A stretch of 30,757 nt of DNA from a virus. Shown in pieces: positions 2,683 through 7,464 of this stretch. The stretch lies in the UHGV virus genome UHGV-0360189; one strand, given 5' to 3'. The position numbers and the translations under genes are program-made. Positions within the stretch are counted from its first letter, which is position 1. Each line of letters begins with the position of its first letter. The notes under the pieces were generated by a model, which was not told the DNA's origin, searched no databases, and was given only the letters and a program-made list of their open reading frames with translations.

Positions 2683-3302
2683 GACTCGAAAGCGTAGCTA
2701 AATTTCATTCGCCAAAAAGCCCGATGATGAGCGACTCACCACGGGCCACGGCTTCTGACTCTCTTTCCGGTACTGATGTGATGGCTGCTATGGGGATGGT
2801 GCAATCACAAGCCGGATTCGGAATGGCTGCATTCTGCGGTAAGTATGAACTCAGCCAGAACGACAAACAAAAGGCTATCAACTATCTGATGCAATTTGCA
2901 CACAAGGTATCGGGGAAATACCGTGGTGTGGCAAAGCTTGAAGGAAATACTAAGGCAAAGGTACTGCAAGTGCTCGCAACATTCGCTTATGCGGATTATT
3001 GCCGTAGTGCCGCGACGCCGGGCGCAAGATGCAGAGATTGCCACGGTACAGGCCGTGCGGTTGATATAGCCAAAACAGAGCAGTGGGGGAGAGTTGTTGA
3101 GAAAGAGTGCGGAAGATGCAAAGGTGTCGGCTATTCAAGAATGCCAGCAAGCGCCGCATATCGCGCTGTAACGATGCTAATCCCAAACCTTACTCAACCC
3201 ACCTGGTCACGCACTGTTAAGCCGCTGTATGACGCTCTGGTGGTGCAATGCCACAAAGAAGAGTCAATCGCAGACAACATTTTGAATGCGGTCACACGTT
3301 AG
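2679..3302 (+). CDS. Q: Late gene antiterminator Q
   Basis: ORF track 2679..3302, 207 aa, [27 protein letters not shown]... essentially lambda Q including the Cys-rich zinc-binding region (CRDCHGTG...CGRCKG). ATGA overlap with ninI. Confidence 0.92.
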
Positions 3303-3379: not shown

Positions 3380-3573
3380 AACGATGGGTTAATTCGCTCG
3401 TTGTGGTAGTGAGATGAAAAGAGGCGGCGCTTACTACCGATTCCGCCTAGTTGGTCACTTCGACGTATCGTCTGGAACTCCAACCATCGCAGGCTGAGAG
3501 GTCTGCAAAATGCAATCCCGAAACAGTTCGCAGGTAATAGTTAGAGCCTGCATAACGGTTTCGGGATTTTTTA
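3380..3573 (+). ncRNA. 6S late leader transcript (pR' to tR')
   Basis: Interval from the inferred pR' start site to the tR' hairpin plus T-run; length of about 194 nt agrees with the lambda 6S RNA. Ends are inferred, not measured. Confidence 0.5.
3515..3572 (+). terminator. tR' intrinsic terminator (antiterminated by Q)
   Basis: Long imperfect hairpin with outer arms CCCGAAAC (3517-3524) and GTTTCGGG (3558-3565), followed by T-run 3567-3572. Confidence 0.65.
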
Positions 3574-5410: not shown

Positions 5411-5908
5411 ATGAAATCATTAACCCTCTTCAATCAACCAATTCGTATCGGTGAAGATGGCATGATCTGCCTCACTGATATGTGGAAAGCCAGTGGTAAA
5501 AGTGAATCTGAATCGCCTTACCACTACCTGCGAAACAAGCAGACCAAAGAGTTCTTAGCCGAGCTGGAGAAAAACCACGAATCTGTGGTTTTTACTGAGC
5601 GCGGTGTACACGGTGGAACATATGGCGGGAAGTTTGTTGCTTACGATTATGCGGCTTGGTTAAACCCCGGGTTCAAGTACGCGGCCTATAAAGTCCTCGA
5701 TGACTACTTCACCGGAGAACTTCAGCATCGCAACAGCTTAAGTGCGCAGCTCAACATGAAATGTCATGAGTTTGACCAGAAGAAAGACATGGCGAGCTTC
5801 TGCGGACAAGGGCTGGCAGCATGGCGCTATACGAAGCCAGTGTTGGTCGCTGAGATTAACTCCCTGGCTAACCAGCTGCAGATTACGATCCCCGGGCTTC
5901 CGGGATGA
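5411..5908 (+). CDS. KilA-N-like domain protein (accessory, function unknown)
   Basis: ORF track 5411..5908, 165 aa. The N-terminal region (IRIGEDGMICLTDMWKASGKSESESPYHYLRNKQTKEFLAELEK) resembles the KilA-N/APSES-type DNA-binding domain as I recall it; not verified by profile search. Sits where lambda has bor. Confidence 0.45.
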   Translation: MKSLTLFNQPIRIGEDGMICLTDMWKASGKSESESPYHYLRNKQTKEFLAELEKNHESVVFTERGVHGGTYGGKFVAYDYAAWLNPGFKYAAYKVLDDYFTGELQHRNSLSAQLNMKCHEFDQKKDMASFCGQGLAAWRYTKPVLVAEINSLANQLQITIPGLPG

Positions 5909-6174
5909 GTGATCGTGTTATTGAATGCGCCTCCAGAGCGGGGCGCGACTTCTCAGAGTTCATGAAAGGCGAGAAGGGCATGATGGAAGCATTGGCCTCG
6001 GTGGATGAGTTTGGCGAGCAGCTGCGCCTCAACGGCTGTGTCAATCATCACTTTGTTAGCTACATGATGCGGAACTCGATCATGCAGGCATTCATGGACA
6101 TGGCAAAAGCCGAGAGGAAAGAAGAGCGCCGGCGTAAGCGAGCGGAAGCAAAAGCAAAAGCAAAAGTGAAGTAG
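5905..6174 (+). CDS. Hypothetical small protein with basic Lys/Ala-rich C-terminal tail
   Basis: ORF track 5905..6174, 89 aa; start overlaps the upstream stop (ATGA), suggesting translational coupling with the KilA-N-like gene; C-terminus KAERKEERRRKRAEAKAKAKVK. No family recognised. Confidence 0.5.
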   Translation: MSDRVIECASRAGRDFSEFMKGEKGMMEALASVDEFGEQLRLNGCVNHHFVSYMMRNSIMQAFMDMAKAERKEERRRKRAEAKAKAKVK

Positions 6175-6398
6175 CCATTACAAAGCCCATTTACGGGTGG
6201 GCTTGATAATGAAACCGGAATTTATTCTGGGCCACCAGTTAACGGCAGTACCACGAAACAACCCAAGCCAGTAAGTGGGGAAATAACACCGGCAGCCACT
6301 GAAAGATGAACCTCCTGCCTTATGGCAAAAAAGATTCTTTGTGGTGGCGGACTGATGGAAAGACATCCTAATTTCAGCCAAACATTGAAGGAGTTGTT

Positions 6399-6470
6399 AT
6401 GTCAGCAGAAGGTTTCAATAACCCATCAAAATTCCGGGATGAGTGGGATAGCAGCGTAAAGAGTAAGTGA
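6399..6470 (+). CDS. Candidate small ORF, 23 codons (MSAEGFNNPSKFRDEWDSSVKSK)
   Basis: Not in the ORF track (too short). ATG 6399 preceded by GAAGGAG (6387-6393) with a 5-nt spacer; stop TGA 6468-6470; bracketed by the two hairpin-containing repeats. Coding status unproven. Confidence 0.3.
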   Translation: MSAEGFNNPSKFRDEWDSSVKSK

Positions 6471-6762
6471 TGCCATCACAAAAGCCATTCCCTACAGAGT
6501 GGCTTTGATAATGGCTTATACCCTACACGGGATAACTTAACTGATATCCCTTTTAAAGGATAAAGGTATTCAAGCCTGACACATCATGCGCTGTATCGTC
6601 GCCGTATTCCCGTATTAACAGAGACCGTAGCCCGACGGGGAACTCCTTCTGCGCGAGTGTGCGGGAATAATCAAAAACGATGCACACCGGGGTTACCGGG
6701 TACACATATTTCATCATGCCAGCGAGTCCGGTTCTGGCACGGAAGAAACCGGACGTTATGAT

Positions 6763-7188
6763 TTAGTGCGGAAATATTTGTGTAGTGTTCTGAATGTTCT
6801 CAGTAAAGAGTAATGAATTATCAAAGGTATAGTAATACCTTTTGTTTTCGTGGATATTTGTAATCCATCTGAAAACCCCTGCTGTAGCAAGATTTTTCCT
6901 GTATTCGTAAAATGATAACTCTCCTGATTTGAATCCTTTTAAGGTGGCTTCTATAAGGCATTTATTTTTTGAAAATCTTACATTTACAACCTTACCCTGT
7001 CCTTTTATTAAAACCGTATTATCGTTTTCAAGAACAAGATGAATATTCTCTGTGGCTAAATAGTAAATGTAATGTGAGACATTGTGACGTTTTAGTTCAG
7101 AATAAAACCAGTGATAGTTTAAATTATTTCGCACTTTATCGAATATTTGTTTAAAAATGGCAACCTGAGCCATTGTAGTACCTTCCAT
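6763..7188 (-). CDS. AT-rich accessory protein, YdfO/YbcV-like (DUF1398-type as I recall), function unknown
   Basis: ORF track 6763..7188 (-), 141 aa. A more likely start is the second ATG (about 7173, [11 protein letters not shown]...) preceded by GGAAGG. The gene is markedly AT-rich by eye compared with the flanking lambda-like genes. Family assignment is from memory of E. coli cryptic-prophage genes next to the nu1 homologue, not from a search. Confidence 0.6.
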
Positions 7189-7230: not shown

Positions 7231-7464
7231 TCAATCTGGTCTAACCTGTTTTCTGAGCAATTCAGTAATGTCACTCTTTTCTTTGTTTGCTTCAGGCGAA
7301 ACTCTTTTTTCTGAGCACAGTCTCCGGCGGCAGGCTTCAATGACCCAGGCTGAGAAATTCCCGGACCCTTTTTGAACAAGAGCGATGTTAATTTGTTCAA
7401 TCATTTGGTTAGGAAAGCGGATGTTGCGGGTTGTTGTTCTGCGGGTTCTGTTCTTCGTTGACAT
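7231..7464 (-). CDS. Small ribbon-helix-helix-type DNA-binding protein, YnfO/YlcI-like
   Basis: ORF track 7231..7464 (-), 77 aa, MSTKNRTRRTTTRNIRFPNQMIEQINIALVQKGSGNFSAWVIEACRRRL... Basic N-terminus then a pattern compatible with an RHH (Arc/MetJ/CopG-like) fold; lies immediately left of cos and upstream, on the same strand, of the AT-rich gene. Confidence 0.6.
   Translation of the reverse strand: MSTKNRTRRTTTRNIRFPNQMIEQINIALVQKGSGNFSAWVIEACRRRLCSEKRVSPEANKEKSDITELLRKQVRPD

Follow-up and report, generated by a model that had tools for sequence, protein, structure and literature searches.

The late region of the virus genome UHGV-0360189 contains, at 6175-6762, a stretch without annotation in which a frame of only 23 codons opens behind a Shine-Dalgarno (SD) sequence. 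Is this frame a gene, and if it is, what might so small a product do for the phage that carries it? I address both questions for the whole 30,757-nucleotide stretch of DNA that was analysed, hereafter the window, to which all coordinates given without a locus number refer. Comparison of related sequences leads me to put the probability that this micro-open reading frame (micro-ORF) is a real protein-coding gene under purifying selection at about 0.9.

The SD sequence GAAGGAG (6387-6393, plus strand) is separated by the 5-nucleotide spacer TTGTT from the ATG at 6399-6401, which opens 23 sense codons closed by TGA at 6468-6470. The gene as a whole (6399-6470, plus strand) would encode the peptide MSAEGFNNPSKFRDEWDSSVKSK, of which residues 4-17 form the conserved core. 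The SD, spacer, start, length and stop had all been placed here by the original prediction, and a reading of the sequence together with the ORF list confirms them. That prediction also held that a ribosome-binding site of this strength was unlikely to be accidental. As a signal, however, the site is only mildly unusual: an ORF of at least 20 codons in an AGGAG-N4-9-ATG arrangement arises in 2.9% of 20,000 shuffles of 6175-6762, and the plus strand of the window has 7 distinct ORF sites of this kind, two or more of which lie within longer ORFs in another frame. Because about 3% of shuffles and seven sites in the window give such a signal, the ribosome-binding site is not decisive alone, and it is conservation that sets the frame apart from chance.

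How far, then, is the frame conserved? A nucleotide search (blastn, also in its sensitive mode) for the cassette that carries the micro-ORF found only the phages HK544 and Emek among 50,697 phage records. The wider family is visible at the peptide level only; blastn cannot link its types to one another. Searching with the 23 residues by tblastn returned matches of the same length at 52-61% identity over residues 1-23 and four partial matches at 43-55%, located in the E. coli phages APC_JM3.2, E212 and EC.P3, in Enterobacter phages, in the Proteus phages Brookers and Pm34, in the Cronobacter phage ES2 and in Providencia. Six of these loci were read, and each match proved to be a short ORF of the late region with its own ATG and an SD-like motif. 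The peptides are MATQGFDNPSKFRDEWDKQAEGK in APC_JM3.2 (E. coli), MAVEGSDNPVKFREELDKSIPKK in Brookers (Proteus), MAAQGFDNPTQFREELDKSIPKE in Pm34 (Proteus), MATQGFDKPEQFREELDKSIPKE in PSTNGR2lys (Providencia), MSLEGSQNPSQFRKEWDESTEQKPASL in MStein-2023a (Enterobacter) and MKSCNATQGFDNPTKFREEWDRQTKEA in ES2 (Cronobacter).

Pattern searches enlarged the family considerably. Scanning IMG/VR with a degenerate-DNA pattern gave at least 120 stretches; the 119 loci analysed were all short family ORFs, none of them a chance match inside a long gene. Scans of IMG/VR yielded 333 and 380 confirmed stretches, and a scan of GTDB, with one genome per species, yielded 14 loci in genera that include Escherichia, Enterobacter, Atlantibacter, Trabulsiella and Proteus. 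The family set comprises 311 loci, 128 unique nucleotide versions of SD plus ORF, and 62 distinct peptides of 22-31 residues, with a length of 23 residues in 86 of the 128 versions and 27 in another 32. Their shared core reads [EQ]-G-[FS]-x-N-P-x-[KQ]-F-R-x-E-[WL]-D. The carriers are hundreds of temperate phages, namely lambdoid, P22-like and HK97-like phages and prophages of at least eight enterobacterial genera, with E. coli, Salmonella, Enterobacter, Cronobacter, Proteus and Providencia among the hosts. Of 5,426 complete E. coli genomes, 129 carry type 1 and about 193-231 carry type 2, together roughly 6%.

A few loci stand out in this collection. Two metagenome-assembled genomes, one assigned to Cellvibrionaceae (L172) and one to Candidatus Nanosynbacter (L173), encode a peptide 100% identical to E. 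coli type 1, upstream leader included; L172 also has the junction between DUF2560 and a P22-type terminase that is found in enterobacterial P22-like prophages. Both are almost certainly mis-binned contigs of enterobacterial prophages. Locus L077 (3001-3072) is recombinant within the ORF itself, joining a type-1 upstream context and N-terminus to a type-2 C-terminus that is followed by an Sf6-type small terminase. Locus L068 holds two paralogous copies, one of type 1 and one of type 2 (3001-3072 and 3420-3491), with DUF2560 between them.

The manner in which the family varies is what marks the micro-ORF as coding. The aligned start is ATG in 178 of 183 first-round instances, and an in-frame ATG is missing from just 6 of the matches in the 311 loci. 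Of the 128 unique versions, 115 have an SD-like tetramer 4-16 nucleotides upstream, and in 122 the stop falls exactly 6 codons past D17. Within the core G5, P9, F12, R13, E15 and D17 are invariant while their codons change, Arg13 being written as CGT, CGC, CGG, CGA or AGG. Ser6 draws on both of its codon families (TCA, TCG, AGT and AGC) and Leu16 appears as TTG or CTG. For the core (codons 4-17) of 11 lineage representatives, the proportions of synonymous and nonsynonymous differences are pS 0.76 and pN 0.16 in the frame of the ORF, hence a pN/pS of 0.20; the two remaining sense frames give 1.3 and 2.7. A set of 86 versions gives the same picture, with pN/pS of 1.25-2.0 in the other frames except for the mirror antisense frame (0.28), where the effect is expected since that frame shares the wobble positions, and where 13 of 64 core versions contain stops. 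The frame of the ORF is interrupted in 0 of the 64, whereas four of the other five frames have stops in 13-50 of them. Synonymous sites are near saturation.

Close relatives tell the same story on a shorter scale. Among the type-1 copies retrieved by nucleotide search, the one that has diverged furthest carries 5 changes, of which 4 are synonymous and the fifth is V20I. Defective copies amount to 2 of the 119 pattern-scan loci (one with a nonsense codon, one with both start and stop lost), and a nucleotide-level search of the collected loci found no disrupted copies. The sequences upstream and downstream are unrelated between types and make up 213 distinct contexts, so the ORF itself must be the conserved unit. 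The original prediction had proposed comparing the conservation of the frame with that of the nucleotides and running tblastn with the peptide. The first comparison shows substitutions that are overwhelmingly synonymous in this frame, the second reveals peptide-level homologues with diverged DNA and unrelated flanks in many phages, and its central claim of a genuine small coding ORF is thus supported by family conservation and by selection as read from the sequences.

Several points weigh against this reading. Because the peptide or degenerate-DNA patterns used to retrieve most of the loci prescribe several core residues, the invariance at those positions is partly ascertainment. A fair test is confined to the pattern-free codons (4, 6, 7, 10, 11 and 14) and to the unbiased tblastn matches; at the pattern-free codons pN/pS is 0.31 in frame and 1.7-1.8 out of frame. 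GAAGGAG is kept in nearly all type-1 copies, but a minority have the weakened SD GAAGAAG. An equilibrium fold of the window transcript predicts that the SD is mostly paired with CCUCCU at 6312-6317, with an unpaired probability of 0.25. The gene is also dispensable, as isogenic prophages exist without it. The searches gave no homologue with known function and, in Pfam, only a match below threshold; looking for the peptide strings in papers and in one set of supplements, and for phage matches in papers on small ORFs and ribosome profiling, turned up none. A single-sequence AlphaFold 2 model of a 32-residue stretch of the window shows a helix from P9 to K21 with a confidence score (pLDDT) of about 85, and it deserves little weight, coming from one sequence and from a 32-mer that includes 9 non-coding residues. 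Finally, the near-constant distance from core to stop behind a variable tail also fits a mechanism in which the nascent peptide acts inside the ribosome.

Why had such a gene escaped notice? The expectation that standard annotation would miss it was borne out, there being no in-frame feature in any of the roughly 320 E. coli carrier genomes listed, and in the family at large the gene was never annotated in frame. An E. coli genome of the avian pathogenic group (APEC) is identical to the window over 6150-6780, and its PGAP annotation has no feature between the 89-residue gene and the DUF1398 gene that flank the stretch. In three phages the micro-ORF is covered by a longer annotated coding sequence that is read in a different frame: orf53 of Emek (L003, 2636-2797), gp6 of Pm34 (L010, 2460-2606) and QPB11334 of PSTNGR2lys (L186, 2406-2597). 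These three run through terminator hairpins, and their frame bears no trace of selection, so that they are probably wrong calls behind which the true small gene is concealed.

Protein databases were equally silent. A word-indexed search of 5.8 billion proteins, with a concatenate of six variants as the query, gave 3 matches, namely one confirmed read-through fusion with DUF2560, one apparent fusion and one weak match. The 32-residue window stretch found nothing among 1.84 billion representatives by phmmer (HMMER), and PHROGs, NCBIfam, PADLOC and the PDB sequences gave no match. The family is therefore a previously unannotated one that lies outside every curated family. The only library family that the peptides touch is DUF2740 (PF10872), a family of 43 positions and unknown function. 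In Pfam, 6 of 8 variants and 4 of 7 open-frame translations lengthened at the N-terminus match its positions 19-32 with residues 5-18, at scores of 12-15.3 bits against a gathering threshold of 27, which leaves the peptides outside the family; the match stays confined to the 14-residue core also with the upstream open frame added. A literature search found no paper mentioning DUF2740. As for the read-through fusion, a 1-nucleotide insertion (GGAGCATAAAC to GGAGCCATAAAC) joins the DUF2560 gene in frame to the micro-ORF on several contigs, giving a 105-residue product (P0001; L188 628-945 and L189 174-491).

Where the gene sits says much about what kind of gene it is. The window represents the late region of a lambdoid prophage. 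Its features begin with the antiterminator region, followed by holin (3971), lysozyme (4278), Rz (4751), a KilA-N/ORF11CD3 gene (5411-5908) and a gene for a protein of 89 residues (5905-6174), which ends in TAG. Beyond the unannotated stretch, a DUF1398 gene (6763-7188) and a DUF3950/YnfO gene (7231-7464) lie on the minus strand, convergent with the micro-ORF, before the Nu1-type small terminase (7853) and then the large terminase. The next plus-strand gene after the micro-ORF is thus 1.38 kb away, past two convergent genes.

Aligning the window with HK544, Emek, HK97, Chlobot, mEpX1 and one phage carrying Stx2 outlines a discrete slot. All seven share a hairpin (A) and about 190 nucleotides of conserved non-coding DNA (block 1, to 6367/6372) on the left, and likewise a second hairpin (B) and the sequence to its right. 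DNA specific to the cassette, comprising leader, SD and ORF (6373-6474, plus strand), is present in the window, HK544 and Emek, and in loci L191, L192 and L195. After GACATC (6367) the slot is empty in HK97, Chlobot, L190, L194 and L197; in mEpX1 and the Stx2 phage it holds a 123-residue gene of the Gp49 family, and in L196 another gene. Loci L190-L197 belong to eight further prophages picked solely for encoding an identical 89-residue protein: three have the micro-ORF in the slot, three have it empty, one has a different gene and one has a different layout, with a type-2 copy of the micro-ORF further down. The micro-ORF thus travels as cargo in a cassette that is discrete and optional and that occupies a known accessory-gene hot spot between the lysis and terminase genes.

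The two hairpins are related imperfect palindromes that flank the stretch. Hairpin A (6176-6211, plus strand) starts 2 nucleotides past the TAG of the 89-residue ORF, and hairpin B (6472-6515, plus strand) has a lower stem at 6472-6476/6511-6515 and an upper stem at 6481-6490/6497-6506; members of this hairpin family occur at both places in the window and at L004, L005, L006, L007 and L190-L197. The original prediction had put the second repeat about 10 nucleotides after the micro-ORF, which holds for the strong upper stem, though the lower stem already begins 2 nucleotides past the TGA. It had also described the ORF as enclosed by the hairpin repeats, a statement that is true in the window but concerns a feature of the insertion slot and not of the family. 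Hairpin B persists with unrelated cargo or an empty slot. Elsewhere in the family the stop is followed by no hairpin at all or by another kind with an A-run before it, which would act as a minus-strand terminator. Since many members lack it and hairpin B follows any cargo, the hairpins are a property of the slot and not of the gene family, and as a defining mark of the family they had to be rejected.

The left arm of hairpin B varies with the cargo, being GCCATCAC with the micro-ORF, GTTATTAC with gp49, and GTTATTGC with a GAGGCC/GGTCTC upper stem in the empty slot. All three pair with the constant right arm GAYAATGGC, partly by G-U pairs, and because such pairs would be mismatches on the opposite strand, the structure appears to be maintained on the plus-strand RNA. 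These sequences suggest that the hairpins at the slot boundary form an RNA structure on the plus strand of the late transcript, and that recombination break-points fall inside the hairpin. Hairpin B has no U-tract on the plus strand and a weak one on the minus strand. Terminator-like hairpins of a role that is not known have been described within the late operons of P22-like phages (PMC8022706).

Between hairpin A and the cassette, block 1 (6212-6372, plus strand) is a conserved non-coding sequence of about 160 nucleotides, found in HK97, HK022, mEpX1, Chlobot, Stx2 phages and many E. coli prophages regardless of what follows it, and the late transcript probably includes it ahead of the micro-ORF. 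The CCUCCU at 6312-6317 that is predicted to pair with the SD lies within this block. Frame-breaking indels of 1 and 8 nucleotides among its 34 versions rule out coding on either strand. They exclude both a minus-strand ORF of 67 residues (6178-6381), which is an annotated coding sequence in phage Chlobot, and a plus-strand ORF of 45 residues (6322-6459). Rfam, searched with the window and with 6100-6800 at gathering and at permissive thresholds, offered no credible RNA family; a weak Proteo-phage-1 match (19.8 bits, 6262-6297) falls in block 1. Other small features of the window can be mentioned here. The exact 12-nucleotide repeat CCGGGATGAGTG occurs at 5900-5911, where the KilA-N and 89-residue genes meet in an ATGA overlap, and at 6434-6445, in the F-R-D-E-W codons of the micro-ORF; by a rough estimate about 0.04 such repeats are expected by chance per 1.1 kb, and this one may be a coincidence. 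Two hydrophobic mini-ORFs on the minus strand, 6426-6488 (MAFVMASLTLYAAIPLIPEF) and 6092-6190 (MGFVMATSLLLLLLLPLAYAGALLSSRLLPCP), start inside hairpins B and A, respectively, and have similar first residues. The repeat, together with Lys/Glu-rich codons read antisense, probably gives rise to both as by-products.

Throughout its 213 contexts the gene always lies in the late operon between Q and the terminase, and its commonest place is right behind the Rz/Rz1 spanin genes or in the group of accessory genes before the small terminase. It directly follows Rz/Rz1 in 62 of these contexts, typically 25 nucleotides after Rz in Proteus and 11 nucleotides after Rz1 in Enterobacter, and directly follows DUF2560 in 25; in ES2-like phages it stands between Q and holin. 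Downstream the neighbour is DUF2560 in 37 contexts, the small terminase (TerS) in 31, a Bro-N-type gene in 27, and none or another in 84. Companions in the slot segment include KilA-N, Rha/Bro-N, Gp49, DUF2560 and Tad2-like genes. DUF2560 is the commonest named neighbour on either side, and, as it is once even fused to the micro-ORF, an obligate partnership was considered; this was rejected, as DUF2560 is missing from the window and from many other loci. In E. coli type 2, DUF2560 ends 2 nucleotides before the micro-ORF, whose last codons in turn supply the SD of the small terminase, with an ATG 5 nucleotides on. In P22-type phages without a type-2 micro-ORF (L027, L029, L040, L062 and L172), the junction between DUF2560 and gene 3 holds a mini-ORF of 6 codons, ATGATGCTCAACCTGAAATAA (MMLNLK). 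Several unrelated downstream genes share the junction sequence CCGGAGCATAAAC-ATG as their start context.

This placement bears on expression. A search of the plus strand of the window from hairpin A to the ATG (6175-6398) found no sigma-70-like promoter. A terminator-like site follows Rz in the window and is annotated as such in HK544. Proteus and Providencia copies have a canonical intrinsic terminator that ends 4 nucleotides before the SD and is kept by compensatory changes, which leaves no room for a promoter. At the Proteus-type loci (L092-L171) this terminator, a GC stem with T5 about 45 nucleotides upstream of the ATG, overlaps the 3' end of Rz or of other genes; its compensatory changes include GAGCCTCGC/GCGGGGCTT versus GATCCTCGC/GCGGGGATT, and AATGGAGAAATATC-ATG always follows. 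After many Proteus-type ORFs comes a hairpin with an A-run before it, which would terminate the opposite strand. From the position downstream of Q, holin, lysozyme and Rz, the terminator before the SD in the Proteus type and the lack of a plus-strand promoter, I infer that the gene is expressed solely from the Q-antiterminated late transcript.

What could the peptide do? That encoded in the window is hydrophilic; it carries 4 acidic and 4 basic residues, it lacks both a signal sequence and a transmembrane segment, and none of the 62 variants has a hydrophobic N-terminus. Residues 18-23 are the least conserved: the last may be K, E, A or L, and the stop TGA, TAA or TAG. The conserved pattern fits an N-capped amphipathic helix, with a face formed by F12, W/L16 and V/I/A/T20 after the segment EGF(D/N)NP. 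The peptide would be translated from its own SD and would act in trans in the cytoplasm late in infection, the EGF(D/N)NP segment capping a short amphipathic helix that may dock on a host or phage protein. Because the gene is optionally present, its role would be a non-essential accessory function, for example counter-defence or modulation of late stages or lysis timing. In the same segment between lysis and terminase genes, a P22-like prophage carries a gene like Tad2, of the anti-Thoeris family (L188, 157-333), and phage Huey has a gene annotated as an anti-CRISPR. With such genes in the late segment of relatives, a counter-defence role is a reasonable guess.

I lean, if only somewhat, towards action in trans rather than in cis, given that downstream neighbours vary, convergent genes follow in the window, and neither the tail nor the stop codon is conserved. 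The original prediction had left the choice between a regulatory leader peptide and a micro-protein, and it is the micro-protein that these comparisons favour; a leader has to contend with the varying neighbours and with the lack of a same-strand gene for 1.4 kb here. To go further and regard the peptide as a late effector of about 23 residues, be it a micro-inhibitor of a host system, defence or protease, by which late phage proteins are sensed, a cytoplasmic regulator of lysis timing that binds the holin or spanin machinery behind which the gene so often lies, or, for want of an export signal, a signal that lysis releases and neighbouring cells take up, is speculative and carries a good deal more doubt than assent.

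The main competing account is a cis-acting leader or arrest peptide in the manner of TnaC and SpeFL. Its conserved nascent chain would act within the ribosome, and hairpin B, the access of Rho or the expression of downstream late genes would then depend on whether that ribosome stalls or terminates. Conserved amino acids in a very short ORF are typical of arrest peptides. The fixed 6 codons between residues 5-17 and the stop in those 122 of 128 versions would put the core in the upper exit tunnel; in the window, with the stop 2 nucleotides before hairpin B, a terminating ribosome would melt its lower stem; and in E. coli type 2 the ORF ends 5 nucleotides before the ATG of the small terminase and supplies its SD. 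The downstream partner, however, is inconstant over the 213 contexts, at distances from 5 nucleotides to more than 1 kb, and the genes that come next in the window are convergent. Known termination-arrest peptides depend critically on their C-terminal residues and stop codon, and here both vary; many members have no hairpin after the stop, and hairpin B follows unrelated cargo or an empty slot just as well. Q-modified RNA polymerase reads through terminators, and an operon already antiterminated would pass them in any case. There are also no runs of regulatory codons. I consider a leader peptide unlikely on these grounds.

Could the conserved thing be the nucleic acid rather than the peptide, with the ORF incidental to a recombination linker between late modules or to a structured RNA? 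The region is a mosaic junction, L077 did recombine inside the ORF to join two contexts, an out-of-frame ORF is also open across the micro-ORF in several phages, and the conserved non-coding block 1 and the hairpins adjoin it. Yet core nucleotide identity falls to 62-79% while the peptide is kept, variation concentrates at third positions of one frame (pS of about 0.7-0.85 against pN of 0.14-0.26) with switches between the Arg and Ser codon families, and none of the 64 core versions has a stop in this frame. ATG, SD and stop position are retained in unrelated flanks; a sequence that blastn cannot link between types would make a poor recombination linker, and neither conserved RNA structure within the ORF nor an Rfam match was found. 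All this makes an incidental ORF very improbable. More improbable still is a decaying pseudogene in which the SD and first codons of a former slot gene survive. The 123-residue Gp49-family gene occupies the same slot in mEpX1 and Stx2 phages, with its ATG almost equally far from block 1, and the region is highly mosaic, but the peptide is dissimilar to the N-terminus of Gp49. No longer protein has the motif (the 5.8 billion proteins gave three matches, two of them the confirmed and apparent fusions and one weak, and the 1.84 billion none), all 62 peptide variants are 22-31 residues long, and purifying selection is the opposite of decay. A module like a type I toxin-antitoxin system, with a small toxic peptide between hairpins and an antisense RNA, would account for so short an ORF behind a strong SD, for the stable hairpins on either side and for the hydrophobic antisense ORF of 20 codons at 6426-6488. 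Its chance of being right is close to nil. That antisense ORF depends on hairpin B and is not present in family members or types without it, no promoter was found on either strand, and PADLOC and Rfam gave no match; the peptide itself, as the original prediction rightly judged from its hydrophilic character, does not resemble such a toxin, having a balanced charge, no transmembrane segment and a predicted soluble helix.

With a trans-acting micro-protein as the preferred reading, does the gene resemble anything already described? Accessory genes lying between the conserved late genes of lambdoid phages are called morons, a concept said to come from work by Hendrix, Juhala et al. on HK97 and HK022; bor and lom of lambda are examples. 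The micro-gene is like a moron in being optional between the same flanks in near-identical prophages, in its place in the variable segment from lysis to terminase, and in the hairpin after it. It differs in having just 72 nucleotides of coding sequence, an order of magnitude less than the morons described. Nor was a promoter of its own found, and hairpin B lacks a U-tract on the plus strand, so that the promoter and terminator expected of a moron are wanting. With the Proteus-type terminator directly before it, moreover, the gene looks like part of the late transcript and not like an independently expressed gene of lysogenic conversion. The term is used here as in PMC2629481.

Among small phage peptides there is a likeness in size and nature. 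Being hydrophilic, phage-encoded, about 25 residues long and without a signal sequence, so that any action must be via protein binding, the micro-peptide recalls Stp of phage T4, an early gene product of 26 residues that acts in trans on the host defence complex EcoprrI/PrrC. The two have no sequence similarity, however, the micro-gene belongs to the late region of temperate phages, and PADLOC has no defence match for it. TnaC and SpeFL, regulatory leader peptides of 24-34 codons that act by arrest, share with it a similar length, conserved amino acids, a fixed spacing from residue to stop and, in some contexts, a hairpin or gene close downstream. Unlike them the micro-ORF has no fixed regulated gene, a variable C-terminus and stop, an antiterminated operon around it and no sequence similarity. 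Phages also communicate through the arbitrium peptide AimP, sensed by an AimR-like receptor. The micro-peptide is likewise a short peptide of temperate phages which, if released at lysis, could in principle reach neighbouring cells, but it has no signal peptide or processing site and no adjacent AimR-like receptor gene or constant neighbour, and its gene is a late-operon gene, not an early one, of phages with Gram-negative hosts.

The micro-gene is best counted among the unannotated phage micro-proteins and not as a new category. It illustrates how systematically proteins of fewer than 30 residues are missed, since about 6% of complete E. coli genomes carry it and yet no protein database searched has it. 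Its 72 nucleotides, its natural presence and absence variants and the cultivable phages HK544 and Emek that carry it make it a candidate for functional work. A late effector of this kind, if the idea is true, would be among the smallest functional phage proteins known, conserved across eight genera. Should the micro-protein prove an effector, the proteins through which phages interact with their hosts would reach down to a smaller size than hitherto; otherwise, its recognition is still a useful correction to the annotation of these genomes.

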